Made by a program: the position numbers and the translations under genes. DNA of 64,000 bases, taken from Lama guanicoe. Lineage: Eukaryota. Of the stretch, positions 1 to 26,509 are shown piece by piece. Position 1 is the first letter of the stretch. Each line of letters starts with the position of its first letter. The DNA is taken from positions 1 to 64,000 of the forward strand of contig MU053661.1 in the NCBI GenBank assembly GCA_013239625.1. Direction: 5' to 3'. The notes beneath the pieces are model-generated. The model saw only the letters and a list, made by a program, of their open reading frames with translations. It was not told the origin of the DNA and made no database searches.

Positions 1-589
1 AATATTTGAACTGAATCTTGAAAGGTGAAAGGAAGTTAGCTCTCTAATGTGTGGTAGAAGGAATGGACACTTCATGCAGAGAGGTAGAGACATATAAGGG
101 TACACGGCATGAAGCGGCTTGGCCAGACTGAAGAACAACAAGTAGGGCTAGAACAAAGTATCCAAGGTGGGAGTATCTGGTGCACAAGGCCTGTCACGAT
201 GGGTCTTGTGTGCTTAGACTTGAATGTATCCTTAAAGAAACAGGGATATATTGGAATATATGTAAGCAAGAGAATTGCATAAAGATTATGTTGAAGAAGA
301 TCTGGTTATTCTGGCAGCAGAATGGAAGATACTATTTTTGGGTGGAGGCCCATATTTTGGGGGGAAAGGATATTTCGGGGACCAGCCCAGGTAACCCAGA
401 CAACAAGCGGCACACGCCTGCAGAGTGGCCCTGGGCAGAGGGAGGGAGACATGGGCGGCGGAATTGGTGACTGCTGCAGAGGGGACTGCAGGGCCGGGGC
501 GGCAGGCCACAGAGCTGCTGAGGTGACTTTCCAGTGACACATCCAGAGAGCGGATCTGCAGGGGGAGTGTAAGTGGAGGAGCTGGTTTC

Positions 590-910
590 GAGGAGATGCT
601 TCTGTGTGTGGCATTTTGAGTGCGAAGTGTTTATGGGACATCTGAGGGCTGATGTCCATTGTTAACCTGGATTCACCAGTCAGGAGCTCAGAAGAGCTGT
701 GGGTGAGGCCGTGGGGGCAATTCAGTCCTGCCAAGCGGAGGATTGAAGACGAGGCCCTGGGGAAAAGGGCCACGTACATGGCAAATGGGAGAAGAGAAAT
801 CAACCAGGAGAAAGAAGTATAGCAGAGCAGTTGGGAGAAACTAGTTGAGGCAACACAGAGAAGGCTGTAACCTGGCTTAAGAGGGATTTGAACAGTGACT
901 AAAAGGAGCA
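590..910 (-). mobile_element. Degenerate L2 LINE fragment (mirror copy ~24590-24900)
   Basis: ttttgagtgcgaagtgtttatgggacatctgagggctgatgtcc...ggagctcagaagag resembles antisense L2; recognised by eye. Confidence 0.5.
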
Positions 911-3547
911 TAGTGAGAAAAGGGGGTGTGTTGGGCAAAAAAGCCAGGGCTAATGCCCACTTTTAATTGACAAGACGGGGGAAAAGGAGGAGGAGGACTA
1001 TACTTCGGTAGCCTTTAAAAAACTGATCTGTGTGTATCTGTGTTTGTGCATATGTGCACACACACTTTTCTGCCTGGGCTTTTTAAATTTGTTTACGTAA
1101 AACAAAAATTAAGGGAGGGAAACATTAAACAGAGAGGAAAATATTTGTCCACGGCAAAAGCTACCTGGTAATCAAATAAACAGGAGCTGAAAATGCCGAC
1201 AGGTTTGAAACATGCAGCCACCGGCAGTGCAACTACTGTCTCAGTGCCACAGTGAGGGCCATGGTGGCTGAAGGGATCTGAGCCCTGGAGGAGTCATCAG
1301 CACAGGCACTTCTCCAAGAAACTGGAATTTAAAGGGAAGAAGAAAGTGTAGAAAGTATCAGAGAGCAACACAGGGCCGTGGGAGAGGTTTGGGCGAGGGT
1401 TAGTTTTGTTTTACAGTGGGCGTTGCTGGCCTTGCTGAGTTGCTAGGCCTCTGCTCTTGTTGGTCTTTGTTCCAAAAGCTTTTTAGAATGTTCTTCTCGC
1501 TTGAAAATCTGAACAGATTAAATCATTTCAGCTTAGTTCTGGTGTTTTATTTTTTAATTAAAAAATTATCTGGAATTTATTTTAATATCATTAATGAGGA
1601 CACTGTACCAGGTCTTCCAATGATGTAGCTAATTACTCTAGTACTTGAATCCACTAATTTGAAGTGTCAGTTTTATAATATTAATAAAATCTCATAAGTA
1701 TCCACATCTGTTCTTGAAATGTAATCTATTTCATTCATACTCTCAGTGCACTGTTTCTATACTGTTTCCACGGCCATAAATTAATACCTCATAAAGTTGG
1801 TCCCATTTTATCCTTTTCCAGAATGTCCCTAATACTACAAATACAAACATCCCTCCTCATTATTTTATTTGTATATATGGGTATATTTCTGTAATAAATT
1901 TAGGATCACCTTTCAGATTTTTTTCTTAAATCCATTTGGGATTATTAACTAAATTTGCATTCAGATTCTAAATTTATTTTGGAGAAAAAATGTTCTATGT
2001 CCCTCAAACTTGAGTCTGTCCGGTGAAGAGGATGGTGCATTCTACTGTTCATTCAATCAACATTTTTTAAAGTCATTTATCAGAATCATCTTAACATTTT
2101 TCATTAATTTATTTCTGAATAGTCTGTGCCTTTGTTGTCATTATAAATGATATCTTTTCTGGGTTTTGAACTGGGTTGATTGCTAATAAAGTCTTAATTT
2201 CTGGCTTCTCTTGAATAAGAAGGAGATTTGACAGTGTGGGGCCCTATTTCCAATATGGTGACTGTGAGCAGTGTGTTTCATTAGAATCTCCACCTGCCAA
2301 ATGGCCAGTGGCTGCACCCAATCCCCACATTTCTGCTACTTACCTGCCCCCTGTAGGCAGATGAGTTCATGTAGGGTTAGGTGGGTTTTGGACACAGATA
2401 CTGACATCACTGCTGCCACACTGCTGACACTCTGTTGTCACTAACTCTGGTTCTTGCTTTCTGACCTCCCTGAATATGACAGCTCCTTTTGGGCTGTGGA
2501 CATGAGGCATCATTCCAGCACTGTTGGCTTTTCTGCAACACACCCCTGCCTCTCAGGTCAGAAGCAAATGTCAGCTCCTCCTACCCATCCACCCCATTCA
2601 CGGTCTTGCCGTTCCTGGCCAGAGTGGTCCCTACCCCTTGACTGAGAAGTAACACTAAAGGGACTATAAATTTGCCTCTCATCCAATGTCTTAGTTACAT
2701 ACCTGTTCTAGTTTACATTAAAGGTCTTCCAGTTAGGAGGGGAGGGTCTAAAAGTCTTTTAGATCTCCTGCCTTATCATTTCTACCCACTCCCCTACTCC
2801 ATGGAACAGCTTACCACAGATCTCTGCTGCCCCGTCTGTAGCAATGCCCTGTAAATTACAGACAGAGAGAAAAGAACTTCTAAGCCACCACCATAACATT
2901 GACTTCCTGTGACCACACAGACCATAGAAATATCAAGATAAAAATTCCTGAAGAAAGATATTTTGCTTAGGAAGGCACTTTAATTGCATACCTTACTGTT
3001 ACTTCTAATAACTTCATAGACTCTCTGAATGTGCTGCACTCACCTTCCCAGACTCAAGGGAACTTGCTCACTTGCCTATTTACAGTGCATTTCCTCCAAC
3101 ATTCTCTATGCAGAGCTTTCCCAAAGGTACATTTCTTATTTCTATTTAAATTGTTAGATACATCCACAATATCCTTTTTTTAATCCTCAATTACAAATCA
3201 TCTTCCAAGATTGTATTATTTCAACACTGAGAGTGAATAATATGCTTCAAGATTCCCAAGTTTGTTACCAGCAAATAACTATGATTGGTTGAAGATTTTT
3301 AAGTATGTTATTCCTACTAAGGGTATATACGTGAAAGAAACAGGTTGTAATGAGTCTTCTTCCGAGAGATGTTATATTTGCCTTTTGTTTGGATTCTTTC
3401 ACTGTTGAACATTATTATTACCATGAATGTCTTTTCTCTTTGGGATTTAGTTCACCATTTGCCCCTCTCTCTTTACAGGAGTAAAGGAATTGATGTTGTC
3501 CTTCCATCCATCCACTACTCCATGTTGTGTGTCCATTCCTTCAACAG

Positions 3548-3754
3548 ATATTCAGTTTGGGTTCACCACCTTATCTGTGACCTCTTTCCAGTGGCCCCTC
3601 TGTTGGCTCTGGAGAACAATATATTGGATATCATAGTGGTTATGTGGAAACTTGACTACCCAGTATAGACGCATGGTGCCAGAAAAAGCCAAGGACATCG
3701 CAGCGCAGTAGCCAACCGTGCAAGGAACAGCAATTCTGGCTGTGGTGGACCAGT
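3548..3754 (+). pseudogene. ANO6: ANO6 exon 17 pseudo-exon, left-arm copy (207 bp)
   Basis: ccttcaacAG|atattcagtttgggttc...gtggaccagt|GTgagt. Reads IQFGFTTL..FPVAPLLALENNILDI..WK..TTQYRRMVPEKAKDIAAQ*PTVQGTAILAVV versus ANO6 [68 protein letters not shown]. Three 1-bp indels and a TAG stop. Confidence 0.95.
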
Positions 3755-6439
3755 GTGAGTAGAAAGGCTCCATGGGCTGAAGACCTTGAAGAGTCCAAAA
3801 ATGCATTGGTGTTGCTTCCTAAGGAATCCAGTGTTGGGTATTGTTTAATATGAGAGGGAGATGCTAACACTATCATCGTTTTAATGACATAGTTGTAACT
3901 GTAATTGTTATTATTTTTAATAAGTTTTCTTATAATTTTTATTTGTGACTTACAAGAACACTTACAGAGGTAGTTGTTAAGAAGCGTGGCCATTATACTG
4001 TTGCTGAAGTGCTAATTCAGTAGAAGCATGGAAATAACATCAATAAGTTTTCACTCTTTTGATCCTCACATGACTATAAAGGTTACCCAGCAGTGCTTGT
4101 ATAATGGAGATAGAAATCTATCCATTTAAGAGTTTTTAGAACCTAAAATAAGGGCAGTCATTTCACTGTATTTAAACATATATTCCAGAGTATCAGTTTA
4201 AAGTAGGAACTACCTGATGAGGCCATACATGCCCTTTGTGCATCCCCAATCATTCATTACCTTCCTGGACCCCTGGGGCAGAGGTTCTTCCAGAAGTTGG
4301 TCCCATCTCTCCTCCCTACCCTACTCTTTTCATTTGCTACACACTGCTCGTCATTAGCTAAGCATCTTCATGTCCTGCATCTGTCTGAGCTGTGAGGGAA
4401 CAGAACTCAGCTGTTTACAAAGTGTAGTGACAATGACCTGTCTGAACAGTCCCTCTCCGTCCCTTCCCACACCCCCACAGGGCAACAGGGGGCTCGCAAC
4501 CACAGCGATTCCCATGCCAGCCCATCAGGGAAACTTCTTCCCTAGAAATATTCTTACAACCAGGGCTGTTTCCTCCCTTATTTCACTGCCAGTTTCACTC
4601 CCAGGTTGCAGTCCCCAACAAAAGGCTATCCCAGTTTGAATTCCTTAATCAAATCACATTGACCCTGAGTCCCTGGCATTTTCTTATGAGCACTCAGAAA
4701 CAGAACAGGGCCTGGCAGTGGCTGTGGGACTGTTTCCTGGCTGAGGGAACTTGCTGGGCCCTTCAGGTTCTGTAGCCTGGCCCGAGCTCAGCTCCCAGCA
4801 CGGCGTCTTCCCATCTTCATGATTTCGGGCCAGGCCTCAAAAGTTCAGAGCTTCACTTTATCATCTGCAAACAGAATAATTGCCTGCTGCATATTTTAAG
4901 ACTGCTATGTACCACAAAGGGTGCTTAGGGAATTCAGTGAGTCAATGCATGGAAGTCACACAACCTGGTCCTCAGGGAATGTTAGTTATCTTCATTATGC
5001 ACCATCGATAAAATTGGCTGCACAGACTTGGCCAGGTATCATAGCTACAGGCACAAGAATTTGACAATGTGTCCCTGTCTGGATCATAGTCACAAGTTTA
5101 GACAGTAAAACAAGCTACCTGGGACCACCCAGCTGTCAGCCCACCCAACTCCCCACCCCAAGATCCCTCAATTTATCTGATTTGCTTGCTACCACTACTT
5201 TTTGGAGAAAGTGGGCAAATCACACACAGTCACTGACTGCTAGCTTATGTCCATTCCCATTCACTAAAATTGCCCCAATTTCAGTATCCACTGTGCTGCA
5301 AAACATAGACTAATGTTCAGAAATATGACAGCAAGGCCTTTCCCATTTCACAGTCAGAGAAGTGTTAATGTGTCATGTTTAATATGGCATATGACACTAA
5401 GCAAGTCAGGAAAACAGGCTCCTGTGCTTTAAGAAAATTTTTGGTAATGACGTTTGAAACTAAAAGTGTTTTTGTTTGACCTTCAGCTAACCAGAAAATT
5501 CAATTGACTCCTATTACCCATTACACAGGTGTCGTGGTTTCATTGTATTAGGCACTTTTCCCTCATCCCCCCAGCATGACTGCTCCATCAGCACAAATGG
5601 AATGTCTCCAAGGCTGCTCCGTGTGCATGGGCATGTGTGTGCACACATGGGCCCCCACTGATTGGTGCCACTGATTCAGATCCAGGAGTTGTTCTGTCTT
5701 ATAACTCAAGCTTTGCTTTATTATATCCTAGAGAACTGCTTTTAGGTCATTGATTGAACTATAGACCATCCTCTTTCCCTTATTAGGAAGTGACATCTTC
5801 AAAGACACAGGTCCCATGTGCTTGTATATAAGTATAAGTAAGAAGTAAATATGTATGTCATCCCCACACATATTTAATTAGTGCCTTCCCAGTTGAATGT
5901 GCACAGTAAAGGCTAACTTCCCATAACAGGAGAATTTTAGGAAGAAAGAAGAATGAATTAGCCACCAGGGAGAAGACAGGACAACAAGTAGGAGTTTGGT
6001 ATAAAATCATTTACTCTAAAGCTGTTCTGGCTCAATAATTAAGTGGAATTGACATTGTTGTATCATGCCAGAGCATCTGCTATTGAAGACCGATTTTAAT
6101 TGACTTTGATGTAAGTGGAAAATTGTGTCAGAACAGCATGGGAAATGAAGCACACTGCATCTATCTGTACTCCTGAAGTGTGTCTCAGAGATGCTCAGTT
6201 TGAGGAAAAGTATCTTGTCTGGAGACAATACAATTATTTTCATTGTTGGAATTTTTCTAGCTTCCAGAAGCACATCTGCAGGTGATTCTGTAAAAGTCTA
6301 GAGTTGACTTAAATAGCAGGAAATTTTAGCCTATTGAAATCAGGAGTAGTGAAATATTTTTGCCTACCACCACCACCACCAGTAAAGCACGTGTACACCC
6401 AGAGAGATTTCACATAAGACGGAATGACAAAGCTGGTTC

Positions 6440-6960
6440 TGTTACCGAGGCCAAACTTGTTCTGCTCGCTGCACAACAGTGATAAAAACAATAAATCAGG
6501 AGACAAGGCTTTGGGGCAAGGAATAGTAACTTTATTCAGAAAGCTGGCAAACCAAGAAGAAGGTGGACTAATGTCCTGGAGAATCATCTTGCCCAAGTCA
6601 GAATTCAGGCTCCTATTAAGATAAAAAGGGGAGCGGGAGTGGTTGGCTGTGCAAACTTCTTGTTGCAGGCATTCTTTGTTCCTGCAGCCATCCATGTGGG
6701 TCAGGCTGTGGTGTCCCTGTAAACCTCCAACAAAACAAAGGCTATTATATATTTTGCAATTTGCCATCCCTGCGTAAGTGCAGAAGTGCTAACATCCTTG
6801 AAGGTCTGACCCCGAGAATAGACCTTCCTGTAGGTTTTAGGCTAAAGGCAACGTTGTATTTAAAGGTGCAGAGCCAGCAAGATTAAGCCTGAAATCAGGG
6901 CACAGTGCTTCAAATTAAATGAACAGATCCAATGTGGCATCAAATTTGTTCTCGATTACA
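6440..6960 (-). mobile_element. Solo ERV1-type LTR, 521 bp (left-arm copy)
   Basis: TG...CA termini and AATAAA on the minus strand near 6530. The mirror copy at 18582-19102 retains a 4-bp target-site duplication. Confidence 0.85.
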
Positions 6961-7248
6961 ATTTTAGTTAGGGGAAATTTTGCAGCAGAAAGTTCCCTCA
7001 GTTGATTTTCTTGCTTTGCCTGAGATATTGTTTGTTGGCTTGTGGTCTCATGGTGTCTAAACTGTATGTTTAGATGAATACTATTAAAATCATATGGTGC
7101 AGAAAACATATCTGTTCTGCTTCAAAAAGTGACTGAAACATTTAGCTTTGTTTATTCCCAAAGAATTTGGATTAATTATATTCTCGATTTTCTTCTTCCT
7201 TCCAAACAGTTTTTTACTGAAGGGTTTAAAGCCCAAACTACAGAATTT

Positions 7249-7408
7249 TGCAGGGAAATACATACAAAATATTATGATAACTCACAGAGAAAAGAATGTG
7301 ATAATGAGTGTGTATATGTCCATGAATGACTGAAAAATTGTGCTGAACACTGGAATTTGAAACAACATTGTAAAATGATTATAAATCAATAAAAAATGTT
7401 TAAAGAAA
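7249..7408 (+). mobile_element. 5'-truncated L1 3' end (~160 bp), present only in the left arm
   Basis: gtgtatatgtccatgaatgactgaaaaattgtgctgaacactgg...acaacattgtaaaatgattataaatcaataaaaa with an A-rich tail. Flanked by direct repeat agaattt (7242-7248, 7409-7415); empty site in the right arm at ~18300. Confidence 0.88.
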
Positions 7409-8402
7409 AGAATTTAGGAGAAGACTCATGTAATTCATAAGAGCTTTACATCAGAATTTAACACTGACCTATATTTATACTTTTAATCAAGGAACACTAT
7501 AAACTTTGTTACTCGATCATTTATGGCGTTTTTAATTTTGTCCATGTAATCTTTAGGATGTTGAGAGACTTAGACATCTGATCGATCAAAACAGGGATCA
7601 TTTCTTGACTCTGTGAATGAAAGAATCTCAGTATAGTTTCCTGCAAGTATATTTTATTAAAAATAATAAGGAATTCTTGCTCTCTAATAAAGCAACCGAC
7701 AGAAGCAGATACACAGTGTTTAAAATAAATCAGACTATGGGTTAACTTATCTAAACAAGTCAAGATAGTTAAGGGAACAAAGTATGAACTTGAAGGAAAA
7801 TACATACTGTGTAATTAATATCCTATTTTTAAGAAGCAAATGATAAAAAGTCTAATATTTAATCATTTATAGAGAAAGTACTTATATAAAGCAAACTTAT
7901 TTTCATAAAAGTTACCTAAACCATTGGGCTATCAAAACTACATTATTAAAGAATAAATTATACCAAAAAGATCACCAAGGTTGATTGATTTTCATAATGT
8001 TTATAATTTTTGAAAATATAACTTACATATAACATATGCAAGCAGCCCTTCAGTTATCCACAGTACCCTAGTCTACAGTTATTCCTACTGTATTTAAAAC
8101 AAGTAATAGACAAGTTTCAGGCCCTTGCTTTTGAACTGCCACTGGAATTCTGGATATTCCCTCAGGTTAAAGACCAAAAGCAAAGTAACAATTCTACGTT
8201 AAAGCAGTGCTCAAAGAATTTAAGACATTCATTGTCTATGTCCAGTTACAGGAAAGAATTAAGATTTCTGAACCTTAAAAAAAAGAAATCTACTGCTGAA
8301 AATGAAATTATGTCATGTATGCTGCCCATAACAATACAGGCTATAAATTAATGCTCCCTTTACTGTTTTCCTACCAACATAGGATACGATCATTGCTTTC
8401 AA

Positions 8403-10755
8403 ATTCCATTTATGCTAGATGAAAGAAAGCTTCTCCACATGCACCATTCTGACAGTTGAGTGTGTGTGAAAGCAGTCAATCAACTAGCTTGTAGGGAACA
8501 CAAAGTTTTTTTCAGTGAGAAAATACACGACATAAATATATATGGGGAGTTACTAGCTCCCACTCGGTTTTACAGAGAAAAATGCATGAACTTGAAACTG
8601 ACACTTAGAAACATACTGAGAAAACACATTAAGTGTTTCTATGGCTCCTCAATCCCTTTATGCTACGTTAACGAATGTGTCTTCACATGCTCAATTCTGA
8701 GAGTTGAATGTGCGTGTAATCGGTCATTGACATACCTTGAAAGGAACACATAGTTTATTTAGAGTGTGGAATAAAACTACACATATATATATGGATAGGA
8801 ACAAACTTCAACATGGTTTTACACTGAAAACTGCATGAATTTCAAACCGGCACTAGAAAACATACTTAGAAATCGCAGAAAGTGCTTTTATTGTTACAAT
8901 ATCCATTTATGCTACGTGAATGTACGCCTCTACACATGTTCAATTCTGAGACTCGAATGTGTGTGAAAGTCATCAATCAACAAGCTTGTTGGGAACACAA
9001 AGTTACTTTTGAGTTGGACACACCACTACATATATACATAAGGGGAGGAACAAGTTCCAACACGGTTTTACACTGAAAACTGCAGGAACTTCAAACCGGC
9101 TCTTGGAAACAGACTGAGAAAACAGAGTACGTGTTTTCCCAACAAAACTTACCCTTTGTGCTAGATGAACGAACGTCTCTCCACATGCTCAGTTCTGAGA
9201 GATAAGTGTGTGTGAAAGCCGTCCTCCACATTGCTTGTAGGCAACACAAAGTTCTTTTCAGTTGCAAACTCCAATACATGCATATATATAAGGAGGTTCA
9301 AGCTCCAAATCCCTTTTACAGAAAAAACTGAAGGAACTTCAATCTGGAACTTGGAAATAGTCTCAGAAACCAGAGTAAATTATTCTCTTGTAACCCATTC
9401 CCTTTGTGCTAGATAAACGAACATCTCTCCACATGCTCAGTTCTGAGAGATAAGTGTGTGTGAAAGCCGTCCTTCACCTAGCTTGAAGGGAACACAAAGT
9501 TTCTTTTCAGTTGCAACCCCACTACATAAAAATACATGGGGAGGTACAAGCTCCAACTCGGTTTTACAGTGAAATCTGCAGGAACTTCAAACCGGAACTA
9601 CGAAAAAGACTTAGTAACCACAAAAATTGACTCTCCTGCAACCCGTTTCCTTTGTGCTAGATGAACGGACGTCTCTCCACTTGCTCAGTTCTGAGAGATA
9701 AGTGTGTGTGAAAGCCTTACTTCACATTACTTGTTGGGAACTCAAAGTTTCTTTTAAGTTGCAAACTCCACTACATGCATATATATGGAGAAGTACAAGC
9801 TCCAAATCTGTTTTACAGTGCAAACTGCAGGAACTTCAAACCGGCACTAGGAAACAGACTTAGAAATCAGAGTAATTGTTTCTTCTGCAACCCGTTCCTT
9901 TCTGCTAGTAAAACGAAAGTCTCTCCACATGCTCAGTTATGACAGATAAGTTTGTGTGAAAGCCGTACTTCATTTAACTTGTTGGGAACACAAAGTTTCT
10001 TTTCTGTTGCAAATTCCGCTACATACTTATATATGGGGAGGTACAAGCTCCAACTCGGTTTTACAGTGAAAACTGTTGGAACTTCAAACCGGCACTAGGG
10101 AAGAGACTCAGAAACCAGAGTAAGTGTTTCTCATGCAACTCAATCATTGAGCTAGATGAACGAACATCTCTCCTCATGCTCAGTTCTGAGAGATAAGTGT
10201 GTTTGATAGCCGTACTTCATCTTGCTTTTTGGGAACACATAGTTTCGTTTCCGTTGGAAACTACACTCCATAAATAGATATGGGGAGGTACTAGCTCCAA
10301 CTCGGTTTTACAGTGAAAACTGCATTCACTTGAACCCGGCACTAGGAAAAAGGCTGAGAAGTAAGTGTTTCCCCTTCAACCATTTCTCTTTGTGCTAGAA
10401 TAAGTAAGGTCTCTCTAGATGGTCAGTTCTGAGAGATAATTGTGTGTGAAAGCCTTCCTTACCCTAGCTTGTTGGGAACACAGCTTCTTTCCCATTGGAA
10501 ACTACACTCCATATATATGTATTGATAGGTATGAAGTTCAAACCTTTTTTACAGTGAAAACTGCATGAAGTTCAAACCGGCACTAGGAAACAGACTGAGA
10601 AACCAGAGTAATTGTTTCTCCTGCAACCCGTTCCCTTTGTGCTGGATGAACGAACGTCTCTCCACATGCTCAGTTCTGAGAGATAAGTGTTTGTGAAAGC
10701 CGACCTTCACCTAGCCTGTTGGGAACACAACCTTTGTTTTCAGTTGTAAACTACA
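8403..10755 (+). repeat. Satellite array, ~248-249 bp monomer, ~9.5 copies, forward orientation
   Basis: Motif gaacttcaa recurs at 9086, 9334, 9582, 9831 and 10079 (spacing 248-249). Monomer: ttttacagtgaaaactgcaggaacttcaaaccggcactaggaaacagactgagaaaccagagtaagtgtttctcctgcaacccgttcc...ggtacaagctccaactcgg. Confidence 0.97.
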
Positions 10756-10756
10756 A

Positions 10757-12635
10757 ATTTGGAGATACTTTCGTTCATCTAGCCCAATGGAAACGGGTTG
10801 CTGGAGGAACTCTCTCTGGTTTCTCAGTCTGTTTCTTAGTGCCCATTTTAATTTCCTATAGTTTTCACTGTAAAACCGAGTTGGAGCTTATACCTCCCCA
10901 TATATATGTATGTAGTATAATTTCCAACTGAAAAGAACCTTTGTGTTCCCAAAAAGCTAGATGATTGTCGGTTTTTACAAACACTTCACTCTAAGAATTG
11001 AGCATGTGTAGTGTCGTTCGTCCATCTAGCATTAAGTGCATGGGTGGCTTTAATAACCCTTACTCTTGTTTATCATTATGTTTCCTAGAGCCGCTTATAA
11101 TTTCATGTAGTTTTCCCTGTTAAATCGAGTTTGAACTATTACCTCCAAATATATATGTGTGTAGTGTTGTTTTCCAGTAAAAGAAACTATGTGTTCACAG
11201 CAAGCTAGGTGATTCACGGATTTCACACAAACTTTAGTCTGAGTTTAGCATGTGGACAGACGTCCATTCATCTAGCAGAAAGGGAATGGGTTGCAGTAGA
11301 AACAGTTACTCTGCTTTCTCAGTATGTTTTTTAGTGCATGTTTGAAGTTCATGCAATTTTCACTGTAAAACCGAGTTGAGCTATTACCCCCATATATGTG
11401 CATGTAGAGTAGTTTCCCACTGAAAGAAACTCTGTGTTCCCTACAAGCTAGTTTATTGATGGCTTCCACACAGTCTTAACTCTCAGAACTGAGCAAGTGG
11501 AGAGACGTTTGTTCGTATAGCATAAAGAAACTAGGTAGCACTAGAAACTCATACTCTGGTTTCACAGTATGTTTAATATTGTTGGTTTGAAGTTCATGAT
11601 GTTTTCACTGTAAAACCGAGTAGGAAACTGTACCTGCCCATGTATATTTATGTAGTGTGTTCCTCCCTGTAAACAAACTATGTGATCCCGAGAAGATTTG
11701 TGATTTTCGGCTTTCACACAATTCAATTTTTGGAACTGATAATGTGAGGAGGGATTCGTTCATCTACCCTAAACAGAATGGATTGCTGTAGATACACTTA
11801 CTCTGGCGTCTGAGTATGTTTCCTAATTCCGGTTTGTAATTGATGCAGTTTTCACTGTAAAACCAAGTTGGAGCTTGTACCATCCCATATATATTTATAT
11901 GTATATATACAGTGTAGTTTCCCACTCAATGAAAACTTTGTTTTCCCAACAAGCTAGGTAATTGATATCTTTACACTGAACTAAATCTCAGAATTTAGCA
12001 TGTGGAGAGATTTTCGTTCGTCTAACTTAAAGGGAATGGTTTGCAGTAGAAACGCTAACTCTGCTTTCTCAGTGTGTTTCCTAGTGCCGGTTTGAAGTTT
12101 ATGCAGTTTTCACTGTAATACCGTGTTGGAAATATTACCTCCCCATATACATTTATATACTGTAATTTTCCAGTGTAAAGAATGTGTGTGTTCCAAACAA
12201 CCTAGTTGGCTGACGGCTTTCACACACACTTAACTCTCAGAACTGAGCATGAGGTGAGTCGTTTTTTCATCTAACATGAAAGGAATGTGTTGCAGTTGCA
12301 ACATTTACTCTTGTCTCTCAGTATGTTTCCTTGTGCCGTTTTGAATTTCATACAGTTTTCACTTTCACACGAGTTGGAGCTTGTACCTCCCTATATATAT
12401 CTATATAGAGTAGTTTCCCACTGAAAATAATCTGTGTGTACCCAAGGTGCTAGGTGATTGACGGCTTTCACACACAATAAATTCTCAGAATTCAGCATGT
12501 GGAGAGACGTTAGTTCTTTTAGCAAAAAGAGAAGGGTTTGCAGTAGAAATATCTTCCCTATTTTCTCAGGATGTTTCCTAGTGTCCGTTTAAAATTCATG
12601 TATTTTTCAGTATGAAACCGAGTTGGAGGTAGTAC

Positions 12636-15700: not shown

Positions 15701-17314
15701 ATGTAGTGTATTTCCCAAATCAAAATAAATGTGTTTTCCCTACCAGCTAAGTGATAGATGGCTTTCACGCAGAGTTAGCTCTCAGAACTGAGCATGGGGT
15801 GAAGCGTTAGTTCATCTAGGATGAAGGGAATGGGTAGCATTAGAAACAATTATGCTGGTTTTTCAGTCTGTTTCCTAGTGCCGGTTTGAAGTTCCTGCAG
15901 TTTTCACTGCAAAATCAACTTGGAGCTTATACCTCCCCATATATATGTATGTAGTGTAGTTCACCAGTCAAAAGAAACTGTGTTCTCTACATGATTAGTG
16001 ATAGATGATTTCACACATATTCATCTCTCAGAACTGAGCCTGTGGAGAGACGTTCGTTCATCTATGATGAAGGGAATGATTTGCCGTAGAAACACTTACT
16101 ATGTTTTCTCAGTATGTTTCCTCATGCCAGTTTGAATTTCATGCAGTTTTCACTGTAAAACCATGTTGGTGCTAGTATCTCACTATATATATTTATGTAG
16201 TGTAATTCCCAACTGAAAAGAAACTGTGTGTTCCCAAACATCTTTGTGATTGATGGCTTTCATACACACTTAAGTCTCAGAATAGTGCATTTTGAGATAC
16301 GTTCATTCATCTAGCATAAAGGGAATGGGTTGCAGTAGAAACACTACTCTGGTTTCTCAGTTTCTTTCCTAGTGATGGTTTGAATTTCATGCAGTTTTCA
16401 CTGTAAAGTCGACTTGGAAATATTATCTCTCCATCTATATGTATGTAGTGTAGTTCCCCACTCAAAAAAACTGTGTGTTCCCTACAAGCTAATGGATTGA
16501 TGGCTTTTGGACACATTCAACTCTCAGAACTGAGCATGGACATAGGCATTTGTTCATCTTGAATGAAGGCAATGGGTTGTAGTAGAAACACTTACTCTGG
16601 TTTCTCATTATGTTTCCTAGGTCCGGTTTGAATTTCATGCAGTTTTCACTGTAAAACCAGGTTGGTGCTAGTATCTCACCATATAGATATAGTGTAGTCC
16701 CCAATTGAGAGGAAACTGTGTGTTCCCAACAAGCTAGTTGATTGATGGCTTTCACACACATTCAACTCTCAGAATTGAACATGTGTAGATGCTTTCGTTC
16801 ATGTAGCATAAAGTGATTTTGTAAAATTAGAAACACTTTCTGTGATAGTTCTAAGTATCTTTCCTAGTGCCGGTCTGAAGTTCATGCAGTTTTCAGTGTA
16901 TAACCGTGTTGGAGCTACTACCTATCCATATATATATGTAGTTTAGTTCCACACTCTAAAGAAACTGTGTTCCCAACAAGATAGTTCATTGAGCGATTAC
17001 ACGCACATTCAACTCTCAGAATTGAGCATGTGGAGACGCGTTCGTTAATGTAGCATAAAGGGATTGAGGAGCCATAGAAACACTTAATGTGATTTCTCAG
17101 TATGTTTCTTAGTGTCAGTTTCAAGTTCATGCAGTTTTCTCTGTAAAACCGAGTTGGAGCTAGTACCTCCCCATATATATTTATGTCGTGTATTTTCCCA
17201 CTGAAAAGAAACTGTGTTTTCCCAACAAGCTAGGTGATTGACGGCTTTCACACAAATTCAACTGTCAGAATTGAACATGTGGAGAGGCGTTCGTTCATCT
17301 AGCATAAATGGAAT
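10757..17314 (-). repeat. Same ~249 bp satellite, ~26 copies, reverse orientation
   Basis: Reverse-complement monomer motifs (cagttttcactgtaaaaccgagttggagcttgtacctccccatata; gagcatgtggagagacgttcgttcatctagc) recur about every 249 bp. Confidence 0.97.
12639..12707. repeat. (TA)~34 microsatellite inside a satellite monomer
   Basis: Uninterrupted TA run at the position where other monomers read ccccatatatatgta. Confidence 0.97.
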
Positions 17315-18581
17315 TTGAAAGCGTTGATCATGATCTATGTTGGAAGGAAAAGAGTAAAGGGAACATTACTTTAGAGCTTTTATAGTTATGGTCAGCATAC
17401 ATGACAGAATTTCATTTTCAGCAGCAGATTTTTTCTAAGGTTCAGAAAATTTAATTCTTTCTTGTAACTGGACATAGATAGTGAATGTTTTAAAGTGTTT
17501 GAGCAACTGATTTAAAGTAGAAATGTTACTTTGCTTTTGGTCTTTAACATAAGGGAATATCCAGAATTCCAGTGGCAGTTCAAAAGCAAGGGCCTGAACC
17601 TTGCCTATTACTTGTTTTAAGTACAGTAAGAATAAATGTATATTAGGGTACTGTGGATAACTGAAGGGCTGCTTGGATATGTTATATGTCAGTTATATTT
17701 TCAAAAATTATAGATATCATGAAAATCAATCAACCTTGGAGATCTATTTGGTATAATTCAACTTTAATAATGTAGATTTAGATAGCCCTTTTGTTTATGT
17801 AACTCTTATGAAAATAAGTTGGCTTTTTATAACTCCTTTGTAGATAAATGATTAATTATTGTGGGTTTTTTTATCACTTGCTTCTTAAAAATGGGATATT
17901 AATTGCACAATATCTATTTTCCTTCAAGTTCTTACTTTTTTCTCTATTTATCTTGACTTATTTAGGTAAGTTAACCCGTAGTTTTATTTATTTTAAATAC
18001 TCAGTATGTTCTTCTGTCTGTTGCTTTATTAGACAGCAAGAATTCTTTATTATTTTTAATAAAATATACTTGCAGGAAACTACACTGGGATTCTTTCATT
18101 CACAGAGTCAAGCAATGACACCTGTTTTGTTAGATCAGGTGTCTAACCCTCTCAACTTCCAAAAGATTACATGAAGAAAGTTAAAAACACCATTAATGAT
18201 CGACTAAAATATTTATTGTGTTCTTTGATTAAAAGTATAAATATGGATCAGTCTTAAATTCGGATGCAAAGCTTTTATGAATTACATGGGTCTTCTCCAC
18301 AATTCTTTAGTTTGGGCTTTAAACACTCCAGTAAAAAACTGGTTTGTAGGAAGAAGAAAGTCGAGAATAGATTCAATCCAATTTCTATGGGAATAAACAA
18401 AGCTAGATGTTTCAGTCATTTTTGAAGCAGAACAGATACGTTTTCCGCAGCATATGATTTTAATAATATTCATCTGAACATACAGTTTAGACACATGAGA
18501 CCACAAGCCAACAAGATCTCAGGCAAATTAAGAAAAACAACTGAGGGGATTTTCTACTGCAAAACTTCACCTAACTCGAAC

Positions 18582-19102
18582 TGTAATAGAGAACAAGTCT
18601 GAATCCACATTGGAAATGTTCCTTTAGTTTGAAGCACTCTGCCCTGTTTTCCAGGCTTAATCTTGCTGGCTATGCAACTTTAAAACAACGTTGCCTTTAG
18701 CCTAAAACCTACAGGAAAGCCTATTCTCGGGGCTCTCATCTTTAAGGATGTTAGCCCTTCTGCACTTATGCCCGGATGGCAAGTTGCAAAATAGAGAATA
18801 GCCTTTGTTTTGTTGGAGATTTTCAGGGACACCACAGCCTGACACACATGGATGGCTGCAAGAACAAAGAATGCCTGCAGCAAGAAATTTGCACAGCCAA
18901 CGTCACCCCCTCACCATTTTAGCTTAAAAGGAGCCTGAATTCTGACTTGGGCAAGATGATTCTCCAGGACATTAGTCCCCCTTCTTCTTGGTCTGCCAGC
19001 TTTCTGAATAAAGTTACTATTCCTTGCCCCAAAACCTTGTCTCCTGATTCATTTGTTTATCAATGTTGTGCAGCGAGCAGAACAAGTTTGGCCTCGGTAA
19101 CA
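18582..19102 (+). mobile_element. Solo ERV1-type LTR, 521 bp (right-arm copy) with GAAC target-site duplication
   Basis: gaac|TGTAAT...GGTAACA|gaac; AATAAA at 19007-19012. Confidence 0.88.
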
Positions 19103-21787
19103 GAACCAGCTTTGTCATTCCGTCTTATGTGAAATCTCTCTGGGTGTACACGTGCTTGCCTGGTGGTGGTGGTGGTAGTAGGCAAAAATATTTCACTTCT
19201 CCTGATTTCAATAGGCTAAAATTTCCTGCTATTTAAGTCAACTGTAGACTTTAACAGAATACCTGCAGATGTGATTCTGGAAACTACAAAAATTCCAACA
19301 AAGAAAATAATTCTATTGTCTCCAGACAAGATAGTTTTCCTCAAAACTGAACAGCTATGAGACACACTTCAGGAGTAGAGATAGGTCCAGTGTGCTTCAT
19401 TTCCCATGCTGTTCTGACACAATTTTCCACTTATATCTGAGTCAACTAAAATCGGTCTTCAAAAGCAGATGCTCTGGCATGATACAACAATGTCAATTCC
19501 GCTTATTTATTGAGCCAGGTCAGCTTTAGAATAAATGATTTTATACCAAACTTCTGCTTGATGTCCTGTCTTCTCCCTGGTGGCTAATTCCTTCTTCTTT
19601 CTTCCTAAAAGTACTCCTGTTATGGGAAGTTAGCCTTTACTGTGCACATTCAAGTGGGAAGGCACAAATTAAATATGTGAGGGGATGACATACATATTTA
19701 CTTCTTACTTATACTTATATACAAGCACAGAGAACCTGTGTCTTGAAAGACGTCACTTCCTATTGTGGGCAAGAGGATGGTCTATAGTTCAATCAATGAC
19801 CTAAAAGCAGTTCTCTAGGATATAATAAAGCAATGCTTGATTTATAAGACAGAACAACCCCTGGATATGAATCAGTGGCACCAGTCAGTGGGTGCACAGG
19901 TGTGCACACACACGCCCATGCACACGGAGCAGCTTTGGAGACACCACATCTGTGCTGATGGAGCAGTCATGCTGGGAAGGTGAGGAAAAAGTGCCTAATA
20001 CAATCAAACCAGGACACCTGAGTAATGGGTAATAGGCGTCAATTGAATTTTTGGTTAGGTGAAGATCAAACAAAAAAAGGTTTAGTTTCAAACGTCATTG
20101 CTAAAAATTTCCTTAAAGCACAGGCTCCTGTTTTCCTGCCTTGCTTAGTGTCATATGGCATATTAAACGTGACAGATTCACATTTCTCTGACAGTGGAAC
20201 GGGAAAGGCCTTGCTGTCATATTTCTGAACATTAGTCTATGTTTTGCAGCACAGTGGATACTGAAAATGGGGCAAGTTTAGTGAATGGGAATGGACATAA
20301 CCTAGCAGTCATTGACAGTGTGTGATTTGCCAATTTTCTCCAAAAAGCAGGGGTAGCAAGCAAATCAGATAAATTTAGGTTCTTGGGGTGGGGAGTCAGG
20401 TGGGCTGACAGCTGGGTGGTCCCAGGTAGCTTGTTTTACTGTCTAAATTTGTGACTATGATCCAGACAGGGACACATTGTCAAATTCTTGTGCCTGTAGC
20501 TATGATACCTGGCCAAGTCTGTGCAGCCAATTTTATCGATGGTGCATAATGAAGATAACTAACATTCCCTGAGGACCAGGTTGTGTGACTTCCATGCATT
20601 GACTCACTGAATTCCCTAAGCACCCTTTGTGGTACATAGTAGTCTTAAAATATGCAGCAGGCAATTATTCTGTTTGCAGATGATAAAGTGAAGCTCTGAA
20701 CTTTTGAGGCCTGGCCCGAAATCATGAAGATGGGAAGACGCCGTGCTGGGAGCTGAGCTCGGGCCAGGCTACAGAACCTGAAGGGCCCAGCAAGTCCCCT
20801 CAGCCAGGAACCAGTCCCACAGCCACTGCCAGGCCCTGTGCTGTTTCTATGAGTGCTCATAGAAAAATGCCAGGGACTCCGGGTCAATGTGACTTGATTA
20901 AGAAATTCAAACTGGGATAGCCTTTTGTTGAGGACTGTAACCTGGGAGTGAAACTGGCAGTGAAATAAGGGAGGAAACAGCCCTGGTTGTAAGAATATTT
21001 CTAGGGAAGAAGTCTCCCTGATGGGCTGGCATGGGAATCGCTGTGGTTGCGAGCCCCCTGTTGCCCTGTGGGGGTGTGGGAAGGGACGGAGAGGGACTGT
21101 TCAGACAGGTCATAGTCACTACAGTTATGAGTTCTCTTCCCTCACAGCTCAGACACATGCAGGACATGAGGATGCTTAGCTAATGACCAACAGTGGGTAG
21201 CAAAGGCCAAGAGTGGGGTGGGGAGGAGAGATGGGACCACCTTCTAGAAGAACCTCTGCCCCAGGGGTCCAGGAAGGTAATGAATGATTGGTGATGCACA
21301 AAGGGTTTGTATGGCCACATCAGGTAGTTCCTACTTTAAACTGATAGTCTGGAATATATGGTCAAATACGGTGGAATGACTGCTCTTATTTTTGGTTCTA
21401 CAAACACTTAAACAGATAGATTTCTATCTCCATTATACCAGCACTGCTGGATAACCTTTATAGTCATGTGTGGATCAAAAGAGTGATTACTTATTAATAC
21501 TATTACCATGTTTCTAATGAATTAACACTTCAGCAATAGAATAATGGCCACACTTCTTAACAACTGCCTCTGTAAGTGTTCTTGTATGTCACAAATAATA
21601 ATTATAAAGAAAATATATTAAAAATAACAACAATTACATTTGCAAAAACTATGCCGTTTATAACGATGATAGTGTTAGCATCTCCCTCTCATATTAAACA
21701 ATACCCATCACTGGATACCTTAGGAAGCAACACCAATGCATTTTTGGACTCTTCAAGTTCTTCACCCCATGAAGCTTTTCTACTCAC

Positions 21788-21994
21788 ACTGGTCCACCAC
21801 AGCCGGAATTGCTGTTCCTTGCATGGTGGGCTGCCATGCTGCGATATCCTGGGCTTTTTCTGGCACCATGCGTCTATACTGGGTAGTCAAGTTTCCACAT
21901 ACCCAATCTGATTTGCAATATATTGTTCTCCAGAGCCAACAGAGGGGCCACTGGAAAGAGGCCACAGATAAGGTGGTGAACCCAAACTGAATAC
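21788..21994 (-). pseudogene. ANO6: ANO6 exon 17 pseudo-exon, right-arm copy (207 bp)
   Basis: caacAG|gtattcagtttggg...gtggaccagt|GTgagt on the minus strand. Reads IQFGFTTLSVAS / PVAPLLALENNILQIRLGMWK / LTTQYRRMVPEKAQDIAAWQPTMQGTAIPAVV across three 1-bp indels. Confidence 0.95.
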
Positions 21995-24114
21995 CTGTTG
22001 AACGAATGGATACACAACATGGAGTGGTGGATGGATGGAAGGACAACATAAATTCCTTTACTCCTGTAAAGAGAGAGGCGCAAATGGTGAACTAAATCCC
22101 AAAGAGAAAAGACATTCATGGTAATAATAATGTTCAACAGTGAAAGAATCGAAACAAAAGGCAAATATAAAAGCCCTGGGAAAAATCTCATTACAACCTT
22201 TCTTTCACGTATATACCCTTAGTAGGACTAACATATTTAAAAATATTTAACCAACCGTAGTTATTTGCTGGTAATAAACTTGAGAATCTTGAAGCATATT
22301 ATTCACTCTCAGTGTTGAAATAATACAATCTTGGAAGATGATTTGTAATTGAGTATTAAAAAAGAATATTTTGGATGTATCTAACAATTTAAATAGAAAT
22401 AAGAAATGTACCTTTGGGAAAGCTCTGCATAGAGAATGTTGGAGGAAATACAATGAAAATAGGCAAGTGAGCAAGCTGGGAATTGAGTGCAGCACATTCA
22501 GAGAGTCTATGAATTTATGACTAGTCACAGATAGGTATGCAATTAAAGTGCCTTCATAAGCAAAATATCCTTCTTCAGGAATTTTTATCTTGATATTTCT
22601 ATGGTCTGTGTGGTCACAGGAAGTCAAAATTTTGGTGGTGGCTTAGAAGTCCTTTTCTCTCTGTGTGTAATTTATAGGGCATTGCTACTGACGGTACAGC
22701 AGAGATCTGCGGTAAGCTGTTCCATGGGGTGGGGGAGCAGTTAGAAATGATAAGGCCAGAGATCAAAAAGACTTGTAGACCCTCCACTCTTAACTGGCAG
22801 ACCTTTAAAGTAAATTAGCACAGGTATGTAACTAAGACACTGGATGAGAGGCAAATTTATAGTCCCTTTCGTGTTACTTCTCAGTCAAGGGGTAGGGAAC
22901 ACTCTGGCCAGGAATGGCAAGATGGGGTGGATGGGTAGGAGGAGCTGACATTTGCTTCTGACCTGAGAGGCAGGGGTGTGTTGCAGAAAAGCCGACAGTG
23001 CTGGAAAGATGCAGCAGGTCCACCGCCCAAAAGGAGCTGTCATATTCAGGGAGGTCAGAGAGCAAGAACCAGAGTTAGTGATGCCACAGAGACAGCAGCG
23101 TGGCAGCAGTGATGTCAGTATCTGTGTCCATAACCCACCTAACCCTACATGAACTCATCTGCCTACAGGGGGCAGGTAAGTAGCAGAAATGTGTGGAGTG
23201 GGTGCAGCCACCGGCAAATTGGCAAGTGGACATCTTAATGAAACGCTCTGCTCACAGTCACCATATTGGAAATAGGGCCTCACACTGTCAGATCTCCTTC
23301 TTATTCAAGAGAAGCCAGAAATTAAGAGTTTATTAGCAATCAACCCAGTTCAAAACCCAGAAAATATATCATTTATAATGACAACAAAGGCACAGACAAT
23401 TCAGAAATAAATTAGTGAAAAATGTTAAGAAGATTCTGATAAATGACTTAAAAAAATGTTGATTGAATGAACATTAGAATACACCATCCTCTTCACTGGG
23501 CAGACTCAAGTTTGGGGGACATAAAACATTTTTTCTCCAAAATAAATTTTGAATCTGAATGCAAATTTAGTTAATAATCCCAAATGGATTTAAGAAAAAA
23601 ATCTGAAAGGTGATCCTAAATTTATTACAGAAATATACCCATATATACAAATAAAATAATGAGGAGGGATGTTTGAATTTGTAGTATTAGGGACATTCTG
23701 GAAAAGGATAAAATGGGACCAACTTTATGAGGTATTAATTTATGGCCGTGGAAACAGTATAGAAACAGTGCACTGAGAGTATGAATGAAATAGATTACAT
23801 TTCAAGAACAGATGTGGATACTTATGAGATTTTATTAATATTATAAAACTGACACTTCAAATTAGTGGATTCAAGTACTAGAGTAATTAGCTACATCATT
23901 GGAAGACCTGGTACAGTGTCCTCATTAATGATATTAAAATAAATTCCAGATAATTTTTTAATTAAAAAATAAAACACCAGAACTAAGCTGAAATGATTTA
24001 ATCTGTTCAGATTTTCAAGCGAGAAGAACATTCTAAAAAGCTTTTGGAACAAAGACCAACAAGAGCAGAGGCCTAGCAACTCAGCAAGGCCAGCAACGCC
24101 CACTGTAAAACAAA

Positions 24115-24214
24115 NNNNNNNNNNNNNNNNNNNNNNNNNNNNNNNNNNNNNNNNNNNNNNNNNNNNNNNNNNNNNNNNNNNNNNNNNNNNNNNNNNNNNN
24201 NNNNNNNNNNNNNN
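24115..24214. other. Assembly gap (100 N)
   Basis: Run of N. Confidence 1.
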
Positions 24215-26509
24215 CTGATGACTCGGGCTCAGATCCCTTCAGCCACCATGGCCCTCACTGTGGCACTGAGACAGTAGTTGCACTGCCGGTGGCTGCGTGT
24301 TTCAAACCTGTTGGCATTTTGAGCTCCTGTTTATTTGATTACCAGGTAGCTTTTGCCGTGGACAAATATTTTCCCCTCAGTGGAATGTTTTCCCCTCTTA
24401 ATATTTGTTTTACTTAAATAAATTTTAATGCCCAGGCAGAAAAGTGTGTGTGCACATATGCGCACACACACAGATCCACACAGATCTGTTTTTTAAAGGC
24501 TACCTAAGTATAGTCCTCCTCCTCCTTTTCCCCCGTCTTGTCAATTAAATGTGGGCATTAGCCCTGGCTTTTTTGCCCAACACACCCCCTTTTCTCACTA
24601 TGCTCCTTTTAGTCACTGTTCAAATCCCTCTTAAGCCAGGTTACAGCCTTCTCTGTGTTGCCTCAACTAGTTTCTCCCAACTGCTCTGCTGTTCTTCTTT
24701 CTTTTGGTTGATTTCTCTTCTCCCATTTGCCATGTACGTGGCCCTTTTCCCCAAGGCCTCGTCTTCAATCTTCCGCCTGGCAGGACTGAATCACCCCCAC
24801 GGCCTCACCCACAGCTCCTCTGAGCTTCCTGACTGCTGAATCCAGTTTAACAACGGACATCACCCCTTAGAAGTCCCATAGACACTTTGCACTCAAAATG
24901 CCACACACAAAACCATCTCCTCGAAACCAGCTCCTCCCCTTACACTCCCCCTGCAGATCCGCTCTCCGGATGGGTCACTGGAAAGACACCTCAGCAGCTC
25001 TGTGGCCTGCCGCCCCGGCCCTGCAGTCCCCTCTGCAGCAGTCACCACTTCTGCCGCCCATGTCTCTCTCCCTCTGCCCAGGGCCTCTCTGCAGGCATGT
25101 GCCACTTGTTGTCTGGGTTACCTGGGGTGGTCCCCGAAATATCCTTTCTGCCCCAAATATGGGCCTCCACCCAAAAATAGTATCTTCCATTCTGCTGCCA
25201 GAATAACCAGATCTTCTTCAACATAATCTTTATGCAATTCTCTTGCTTATAAATATTCGAATATATCCCTGTTTCTTTAAGGATACAGTCAAGTCTAAGC
25301 ACATAAGACCCATCGTGACAGAGGCCTTGTGCACCAGATACTCCCACCTTGGATACTTTCTAGCCCTAATTGTTGTTGTTCTTCAGTCTGGCCAAGCCGC
25401 TTCATGCCGTGTAGTCTTTTATGCCTCTACCTCTTTGCATGAAGTGTCCACTCCCTCTACCACACAAAAGACATCTAACTTCCTTTCACCTTTCAAGATT
25501 CAGTTCAAATATTTCCAGATCTAGGAAGTCCAATTTGTGTTCACCTGCTTAGCAATCCATCAACTACTCGCCAAGTCTCGCCTGGCGTGGGGAGTGCAGA
25601 CACCAAGTCTTTCCTTTCTTGGTCTCCCCAGCAGTTGATACAGCGTTTGGCATAGCAGGTGCTCAGTGTTTGTTGGATAGATAAACGAATGAATCGGTAA
25701 ATATATGAGAGGTCTACAATCCCCCCCAGTTACTCAGCTGCCTATTTGGGAAGTTCATTCTGCGGAGTTAAGGAAATGTCAGTGCAGGTGGTGGGCAGAC
25801 AGAACAGAGGTGAGGGCGTGTGGGAGACAGGCTTGGTCCTGGAGAGCGCAGGAGAGGCGTAGGGGGGACAGCAGTGGAGAGAGAGGGAATGGAGGGGGCG
25901 GGTGCAAGGAGATGTTGAAGAACAACTGTTATTAACTGAAGAAAATTAAATGGAGAACATAATATATGAAGGGAAGATCAAGTTAACACAGCAAGGGTGG
26001 AAAAGGCAGTACCAGAGACAAAGAGCTCTCACTTCATCACTCACTGCATTTCACTTATGGCACCCGCCCTCTGGGAAGGCAGCGCCAATTTCTTGAGAGA
26101 CTGGTGTTTGTGCTTTGGGTGCTCTAAGTACAAAACGGTATCTTATGGCTTCCAGATTTAAAGACTGATAGATTATTTCTCTTATGTCCCATGTCTGAGC
26201 TCTCAGACAGCAGGATCTTTCACTGGTGGGGGGAGAGCTATTGTGGTTAACAACTCAGGGTTACTCTAATAATCTAAAAAGGACAGTGGGGAATTCACTA
26301 AAACAAATAAAAAAGAAATTTCACCCAGAAAAAAATATATGCCATATAGAATATTGTGGGGGCCTTGGGGGCAATGTTACTGCCAACTCATCTAACAGCT
26401 GTATGTGAGTGTGTTGAAACTCCAAGCTCAAGTCACTTAAACACGTAGGAGACCCAGGGTCCAGGCTGTGGTGCTCCAGACATGGACAGGAAGATGAAAA
26501 GCCTGACTA

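Follow-up and report, generated by a model that had tools for sequence, protein, structure and literature searches.

Ampliconic palindromes of the X and Y chromosomes are formed by long inverted arms of >99% identity that flank a short spacer and carry intact, usually testis-expressed genes, and primate pericentromeric duplicons are intron-bearing gene fragments amplified beside diverged satellite DNA. In cichlids, the elements called centroids, about 15 kb long and transposon-derived, are described as lying 100-250 kb apart around a methylation dip (Sierra et al. 2026, PMC13652916). The acrocentric distal junction is reported to be a palindrome of >200 kb beside the ribosomal DNA, which encodes a long non-coding RNA, occupies several non-homologous loci and undergoes interlocus conversion (bioRxiv 10.64898/2025.12.22.696095). 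At mouse telocentric chromosome ends, the L1-TLC-minor satellite module places a long interspersed element (LINE) and a separate satellite beside the telomere and is common to many chromosomes (PMC12597820). For camelids, a 248-nt unit is listed as the top tandem repeat of Lama glama, with 2.9% of the genome, and as a candidate centromeric repeat by abundance (Melters et al. 2013, PMC4053949), and pseudogene-rich satellite blocks with NEK10, FMN2, ATF5 and ABHD17A have been described in alpaca (Mendoza-Cerna et al. 2026, PMC13751797), a class defined by confinement to a single multi-megabase block and absence from camel assemblies. Here we describe a locus of the guanaco, Lama guanicoe, at which copies of part of the gene ANO6 meet such a satellite. 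It lies in the first 64 kb of contig MU053661.1 (assembly GCA_013239625.1), the whole stretch analysed, hereafter called the window; the scaffold is labelled C1369.

The inverted repeat at the start of the window is real. Its arms are two dead partial copies of ANO6, each fused to the main camelid centromere-type satellite. These copies probably belong to a non-coding, pericentromeric-type family of segmental duplications, whose satellite tails act as recombination joints and in which palindromes have been built repeatedly. The window is most likely one such product, without a function of its own. A first-pass annotation of the window had recognized the inverted repeat and overlooked the break within an exon, the common strand switch in the satellite and five other palindromes. 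All counts given below come from one fragmented assembly (55,231 pieces, with gaps) and are lower bounds.

Two dead ANO6 copies fused to satellite

Self-comparison matched positions 1-1300 with the reverse complement of 25513-24215 at 93.3% identity, and positions 1405-7253 with that of 24114-18295 at 92.6%. Base-level alignment followed the match at 86-92% per 250 bp out to about 9000/16720, beyond which it dropped to 73%, bearing out the reverse-complementary arms that the first-pass annotation had placed at 1-~9000 and ~16720-25513. Across 8,084 sites, the two arms are 93.0% identical; the palindrome arms are at least 8.4 kb long in the window, with a short spacer. The match does run to base 1, as had been claimed, and its end there simply reflects the point at which scaffold C1369 begins. 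One gap of 100 Ns lies inside the right arm, at 24115-24214, and positions 1-24114, the whole core included, are free of gaps.

With an alpaca-named ANO6 protein (P0016) as the query, residues 272-767 were found as ordered minus-strand pseudo-exons with introns between 21.8 and 61.75 kb (Table 1). For the segments at 26.7-33 kb and 44-51.5 kb, 25 and 21 other contigs carry matches of 88-95% identity (26 and 22 contigs scored). The right arm thus probably occupies the remainder of the window. The exon labelled ANO6 exon 17 is indeed present in both arms, its number presumably following human numbering. A mirror copy of exon 16 had been predicted to the left of base 1: the right-arm exon exists and both arms of the palindrome on C7593 carry the segment, but its mirror in the window would lie beyond the scaffold start. 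The ANO6 content of the arms shows frameshifts and stops, the gene is severed within an exon, and no intact gene is left; the pseudo-exons decay at about the same rate as the adjacent intron.

The intact donor exons are located on a 45-Mb scaffold, C8676, and a 28-base exon motif was found at 41 sites including the donor, with zero in a backwards-read control. The donor exon matches residues 673-740 of mouse TMEM16F/ANO6 with an E value of 1e-38, versus 1e-21 for ANO1. The next exon, past the break, agrees in 69/70 residues with alpaca-named and in 68/70 with wild-camel-named ANO6, in line with the earlier guess that the DNA is camelid; the ANO6 proteins of pig, bison, sperm whale and horse match it at 69-76%. 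The arms are 85-86% identical to the donor and mostly 90-94% identical to other copies.

Homology with the donor crosses the splice acceptor, enters the next exon by 20 bases and then passes into satellite through 2-3 shared bases. The aligned fusion sites uphold the common unique/satellite junction reported for both arms. This breakpoint is common to 21 of the 24 copies inspected, with a few bases missing at the fusion in one of them (C8022), and the exon continues unbroken in the other three (C1606, C4620 and C2810). A motif laid across the fusion was found at 37 sites and a motif just ahead of the edge at 43 sites including the donor, both with zero hits in the backwards-read control. The exon-satellite fusion is thus a single old event that was later amplified: the proposed unit of ANO6 fragment and satellite was correctly seen as amplified, with at least 37 fusion copies instead of two. 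The pericentromeric type suggested earlier is likewise supported by the fusion to a centromere-type satellite at 37 sites, the position being judged from the satellite. Compared by eye, the consensus of the window array shows about 11 differences in 108 bases (~90% identity) to the listed llama 248-nt repeat, and a monomer motif yielded 1,752 matches in the assembly.

Both arms harbour the common solo long terminal repeat (LTR) already noted (Table 1), whose 4-bp target duplication is visible at the 3' side in 15 of the 22 copies spanning the site; a search for its repeat family yielded duplicon copies alone (41 matches). An insertion of ~150 bp, which we take to be an L1 3' end, is common to the left arm, C1164, C8241 and the right arm of C7593, in agreement with a 99% clade in the tree presented below. 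On C1266 (L006, about 568-729), the same segment appears to be inverted and adjoins an arm truncation ahead of the satellite.

Two further observations concern the right arm. At 46227-47090 there is a 432-bp tandem duplication with one difference, where the other listed copies split as if they held a single unit; it may represent a recent event or an assembly artefact. From about 52000 to 61600, an ANO6 intron contains A-rich sequence with ORF1- and ORF2-like peptides and N gaps, presumably L1.

A common strand switch and six palindromes

The core between the fusions is composed of 248-bp monomers, 9.5 in one direction and about 26 in the opposite one. A spacer with satellite in two orientations had been described and is confirmed, but neither it nor the whole block has the dyad symmetry then claimed. 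The strand switch, called J1, is displaced by ~2.1 kb to the left of the midpoint of the core, mirror identity falls from 92% to a generic 73-78% past about two monomers, and mirror positions share one orientation over about 10760-14960. These three features rule out a mirror-symmetric core.

When we used a 401-bp query over J1, the junction was spanned in 30 of the 40 contigs scored (1,721 candidates), at 80-90% identity excluding the window itself. A J1 pattern search gave 21 sites, with 1 in the control, and brought in one extra contig, for a total of at least 31. Between J1 and the arm, monomer order is conserved: one-to-one matches link window monomers 1-7 and 19-26 to C7593, and monomers 1-7 and 19-25 to C7226, at 87-97% in both cases. 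The distance from the fusion to J1 is 5.0 kb in C7593, C7226, C3499 and C6443; it reaches 6.55 kb in the window because about 11 monomers stand where the others have about 3.

Beyond J1, an ANO6 arm follows in C1369 and C7593, the satellite ends after 5-8 kb in C7226 and C2810 and is followed by DNA that does not match the window, and it continues for at least 15 kb in C3499 and at least 8.8 kb in C3132. The idea that an ANO6 arm always lies beyond the switch is therefore unsupported, as the far sides differ (20 probes of 100 bp, four contigs). A single universal switch is also ruled out: C8494 uses another junction, and the switch of C1164 is just 67-73% like J1. The junction of C8494 is a second switch, J2, which also occurs in C729 and was found at six places among the 40 scored contigs.

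Two other arrangements were observed at switches. On C1164 (L031, about 2615-2746), a third strand switch, unlike J1, is followed by monomers of a more diverged type (66-72% to the probe). C8824 carries the J1 motif in two identical copies, at 284-314 and 613-643, 329 bp apart.

The ANO6 duplicon family comprises about 40 copies. We aligned 23 arm copies on 22 contigs at 89-93%, and arm homology extends over tens of kb at 88-95%. Three features of pericentromeric duplicons that could be assessed were all found, namely identity of ~90% or more over at least 1 kb at multiple loci, an intron-bearing fragment of a distant intact gene, and contact with satellite. Converging fusions are 8.9 kb apart in the window, 7.9 kb in C7593, 6.4 kb in C729 and 5.2 kb in C9931, and converging arm pairs also occur in C8494 (about 8.0 kb; the fetched core is gap-free) and C8499 (with a gap). 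The six palindrome cores, of which those of C729 and C9931 were read in part, span 5.2-8.9 kb, and the palindromes use at least two different switches (J1 and J2). The C7593 arms span 7.0-45.3 kb, with an N gap in the left one.

Several members of the family have peculiarities. The core of C8499 (L037, 4811-5017) includes a 210-bp arm piece, corresponding to window 7875-8084, within the satellite and beside an N gap. C4874 and C5387 (L014/L009) are 99.1% identical over 6.5 kb, with an identical run of 3,062 bases, and may be two alleles, the products of a very recent duplication or one sequence duplicated by the assembly. On C4123, arm copies in the same orientation are found at about 108-115 kb and at 348-352 kb, about 237 kb apart, and hence copies also cluster. 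On the multi-megabase scaffold C2129, satellite of at least 16 kb adjoins an ANO6 arm at about 7.51-7.87 Mb, and another array lies at 7.863-7.867 Mb; this scaffold is the best candidate for a chromosome placement of the family. Sampled words of window 5200-12600 were found at 22-29% in 20 of 23 public runs under four organism labels; these values are no evidence for presence, copy number or linkage.

Table 1. Coordinates of the features in the 64-kb window
Feature	Position	Strand	Remarks
Left arm	1..8402	+	ANO6-derived intronic DNA with pseudo-exon, truncated at scaffold start; nearest copies C1164, C8241
Young identity tract	1214..1968		Partner 23551-24296 including the 100-N gap; 10 variants private to both arms
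ANO6 pseudo-exon, left arm	3550..3755	+	Frameshifted, with stop; P0016 residues 702-767 at 3550-3747
Second identity tract	4749..5095		Partner 20449-20795; one difference in 347 bp; no gap nearby
Solo LTR, left arm	6440..6960		TG...CA ends, 4-bp target duplication; in 22/22 copies spanning the site
~150-bp insertion	7254..7406	+	A-rich tail, ~14-bp target duplication; left arm only
Exon stub/satellite fusion, left arm	8383..8404	+	Splice acceptor and 20-base stub of the next ANO6 exon
Left satellite array	8403..10755	+	9.5 monomers, 248 bp
Strand switch J1	10741..10771		Point about 10757; common to at least 30 other contigs
Right satellite array	10760..17314	-	About 26 monomers, 248 bp
Old diverged monomers beside J1	10760..12840	-	8 monomers, (TA)34 run at 12639-12707; 7-8 match in order in C7593 and C7226 at 87-95%
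~11-monomer block	12843..15590	-	Without positional match in C7593/C7226 (about 3 monomers there); most nearer consensus
Arm-proximal old monomers 1-7	15590..17314	-	In-order match to other arm copies, 88-97%
Exon stub/satellite fusion, right arm	17313..17334	-	Same fusion as left arm
Right arm	17315..64000	-	Collinear ANO6 pseudogene duplicon to at least 61.75 kb, probably to the window end; nearest copies C2417, C8397
Solo LTR, right arm	18582..19102		TG...CA ends
ANO6 pseudo-exon, right arm	21787..21992	-	P0016 residues 702-767 at 21992-21795
ANO6 pseudo-exon ('exon 16')	28475..28573	-	P0016 residues 668-700
Further ANO6 pseudo-exons	33362..35226	-	P0016 residues 492-about 657
ANO6 pseudo-exon	41627..41917	-	Starts at P0016 residue 382
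ANO6 pseudo-exon	61628..61753	-	P0016 residues 272-313

Arm history, origin and competing explanations

We built a maximum-likelihood tree with 22 of the 30 copies, masking 1191-1980, 4701-5110 and the insertion; C92, the C7593 left arm, the second C8494 arm, both C8499 arms, C6942, C7226 and the donor covered <45% of the kept columns and were left out. The left arm of the window clustered with C1164 and C8241, the right arm with C2417 and C8397; both groups received 100% ultrafast bootstrap. The two arms are therefore not sister copies, but members of different sub-lineages. Because of this and of their 93% identity, the window is not a Y-type ampliconic palindrome, a likeness proposed in the first-pass annotation, and very probably not a local fold-back. 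In addition, the left array of the window can be paired in order with that of C7593 near the switch only, which implies that the left arms of the two palindromes were either acquired independently or replaced.

The tree has a star-like shape, its long tips measuring mostly 0.035-0.05, and 15 fused copies depart from the column majority at 3.8% of sites. At a neutral rate near 2e-9 per site per year, this divergence corresponds to roughly 19 million years. Such an age falls within the camelid split, dated at 11-25 million years (PMC13751797). Faster substitution beside the satellite would give a younger age for the burst.

The substitution spectrum was also found to vary among copies. The singleton transition/transversion ratio is 0.74 (904/1221) in 15 satellite-fused copies versus 1.10 (317/289) in the 3 exon-intact ones (Fisher p = 2e-5), although it is also low (0.82) in the control C2810 and sequencing error may contribute. 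Satellite-fused copies are high in C>A and T>A, and the substitution rate climbs in the final kilobase before the satellite.

Two tracts of unusual identity link the window arms (Table 1). The first includes 448 identical aligned bases (1291-1842) and could reflect conversion or local collapse. Among 267 pairs of <95% identity, the median longest identical run is 81, and only the window arm pair exceeds 300. The window's partner arms share 34 private variants, a number reached by none of 152 other pairs once C4874, a 99%-identical copy, was dropped; with C4874 kept, the C4874-C5387 pair leads the ranking. Partner arms share 11 private variants in C7593 (reached by 1 of 209 other pairs) and 9 in C8494 (1 of 208), giving an excess in three of the four palindromes tested. 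The tracts give no clear direction of exchange, with 28 right-type versus 9 left-type bases in the first tract and 4 versus 7 in the second. Non-sister arms with scattered private variants in common are best explained by gene conversion between arms that are physically linked.

We propose the following history. A segment of at least 44 kb of ANO6, introns included, was copied from the intact C8676 locus, gained the solo LTR and decayed, as documented by the copies themselves. In one copy, a break 20 bases inside the next exon was then joined to a 248-bp monomer; the junction is seen directly, and microhomology repair is its presumed cause. The distribution of fused copies documents that this unit spread in a star-like burst, to at least 37 copies, and the contigs sharing J1 that a fixed module arose in one lineage, composed of an arm, about 20 old monomers (5.0 kb), J1 and satellite in the opposite orientation. 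We infer that ectopic recombination between the array beyond the switch and the satellite tail of another arm then joined arms; as the satellite flips at the switch, such recombination would yield head-to-head arms. This joining would have happened more than once. Joined arms would finally swap short tracts by gene conversion, a process suggested by the observed pattern and too slow to bring about identity.

Several points weigh against this history. The pericentromeric position and the spread over many chromosomes are deduced from the satellite, the scaffolds being unplaced, and the copies could occupy a few large blocks. All of the sequence evidence stems from one gapped assembly, and the longer young tract surrounds an N gap and is possibly a local collapse. 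When 1-1980 and 4701-5110 are removed from the window, the signal from private variants weakens (6 and 5, numbers also attained by 7/188 and 5/189 other pairs), and the C8499 arms are not distinct (584 sites; 2 private variants, reached by 10/275 pairs). An ancestral palindrome with later arm replacement would give a similar tree, and conversion probably renders any single tree approximate.

The strongest alternative, which we nevertheless regard as unlikely, is that camelid centromeric arrays lie between inverted ANO6 arms with satellite converging between them, the short cores being shrunken or dead and the long ones broken in the assembly. The topology of arm, converging arrays and arm is that of cichlid centroids, for which intermittent homogenisation of partners is reported too, and the 37 chromosome pairs compare with at least 31 contigs bearing J1 and about 40 arms. 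Far arrays can be long: beyond the C3499 array of at least 15 kb, that of C3132 (at least 8.8 kb) shows probe similarity climbing to 96% away from the switch, and the far array extends near the contig start in C1809 and C1714. Arms differ in their fusion bases in four of six palindromes, as a two-sided ancestral cassette predicts. However, cores of 5-9 kb contrast with the 100-250 kb given for the distance between centroids, core monomers are mostly 70-90% alike rather than homogeneous, no human-type CENP-B box (in the form of the motif that we assume; at most one mismatch) was found in the core, and beyond J1, C7226 and C2810 have 5-8 kb of satellite before DNA unlike the window begins. It is similarly doubtful that arrays on many camelid chromosomes are framed by inverted copies of a single ANO6 duplicon that spread between non-homologues, with a conserved switch 5 kb inside one arm.

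We consider it improbable that unlinked arms were stitched together through satellite during assembly, for example at the 11-monomer block or the (TA)n run. The fragmentation of the assembly, the absence of a positional match for that block in C7593 and C7226 and the gap enclosed by one identity tract would fit such a mis-join. Yet the sequence is gap-free up to 24114, the monomer bearing the (TA)n run is 90% identical overall to its counterpart in C7593 and C7226, and the arm-to-switch order is repeated in other contigs with diverged sequence. In three palindromes, moreover, partner arms have scattered private variants in common, which read collapse would not yield; this recurrence and scatter suggest that the arms are physically joined and disfavour a mis-join.

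A local fold-back, by breakage-fusion-bridge or template switch, that copied one arm from the other in situ would account for the head-to-head geometry, the clean switch and the short near-identical arm tracts, but it is largely refuted by the tree, with non-sister arms both placed at 100%; the left-arm insertion occurs on other scaffolds and is absent from the partner arm, and the switch is off-centre and older than the window locus, making this origin very improbable. We give equally little credence to arms retained for a double-stranded RNA, small RNA or satellite read-through that silences the region or regulates ANO6: both arms do face the satellite in the sense direction of the gene, but the exons are frameshifted and decay about as fast as the adjacent intron, and the closest unique bases of the two arms are >9 kb apart.

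Significance and relation to described systems

A segmental duplication family with recombining satellite tails, as favoured here, points to a recurrent building block at the edges of camelid satellite arrays rather than a working gene, apparently undescribed. Neither the exon-satellite fusion nor the common switches, the palindromes or the conversion signal were found described in the literature searched, which did not include the VicPac4 assembly paper; the search on ANO6 in camelids gave nothing relevant, and the term 'anoctamin-6-like' had no occurrence there.

The fusion and the switch, each present ~30-40 times, mark the edge of the main camelid satellite almost uniquely. They are usable as anchors for finishing or checking camelid centromeres and as markers for fluorescence in situ hybridization or PCR, and through them exchange between satellite-flanking regions can be traced and dated. 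The family also illustrates a simple route to palindromes, requiring a strand switch in a satellite and duplicons with satellite tails. On the practical side, work on camelid ANO6 will meet interference from about 40 copies of its pseudo-exons, in read mapping, variant calls and annotation alike. With finished assemblies, it becomes testable whether inverted elements frame the centromeres of any mammal as they do in cichlids. If the ANO6 arms did so, mammals would have a gene-derived counterpart of cichlid centroids and of fission-yeast inner repeats, one of possible relevance to the very stable 2n = 74 karyotype; the short palindromes would then be shrunken or inactive versions.

Primate interchromosomal pericentromeric duplicons resemble the ANO6 family in that a gene fragment with introns lies beside satellite. 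X/Y palindromes have in common with the window long inverted arms, a short spacer and signs of arm-to-arm conversion; they differ from it in that the identity of its arms is 93% and not >99%, it has no intact gene, and dozens of paralogous arms exist elsewhere.

Among camelid sequences, the listed 248-bp repeat has the same monomer length and the ~90% match mentioned above; it was catalogued as an abundant candidate (PMC4053949), whereas the window displays short diverged arrays, common switches and a gene-fragment fusion. The alpaca blocks are like the ANO6 family in having many fragmented gene copies among satellite, interpreted as segmental duplication and decay, and differ from it in that centromeric satellites were set aside in that study (PMC13751797). 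Its main text has no occurrence of ANO6, the 248-bp repeat, inversions or palindromes, and one of its supplement files none of ANO6, 248 or palindrome terms; annotation may be present in figure-based supplements.

As to the other modules summarized above, the distal junction, likewise a palindrome present at several loci and subject to conversion, differs from the window, where the arms are ANO6 pseudogenes 93% alike, the core is a centromere-type satellite and palindromes arose at least twice. Like the mouse telocentric module (PMC12597820), the ANO6 unit is stereotyped and situated at the edge of a centromeric satellite; here, however, a gene fragment is fused straight to the major satellite, and the copies are on unplaced scaffolds. 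Cichlid centroids, as described, share with the ANO6 palindromes an inverted pair of non-satellite elements with converging satellite arrays between them, an occurrence at many loci and an intermittent homogenisation of partners. The ANO6 arms, known here from sequence alone, are by contrast >44 kb long, gene-derived and 5-9 kb apart, and pairs with longer cores would break in the assembly.

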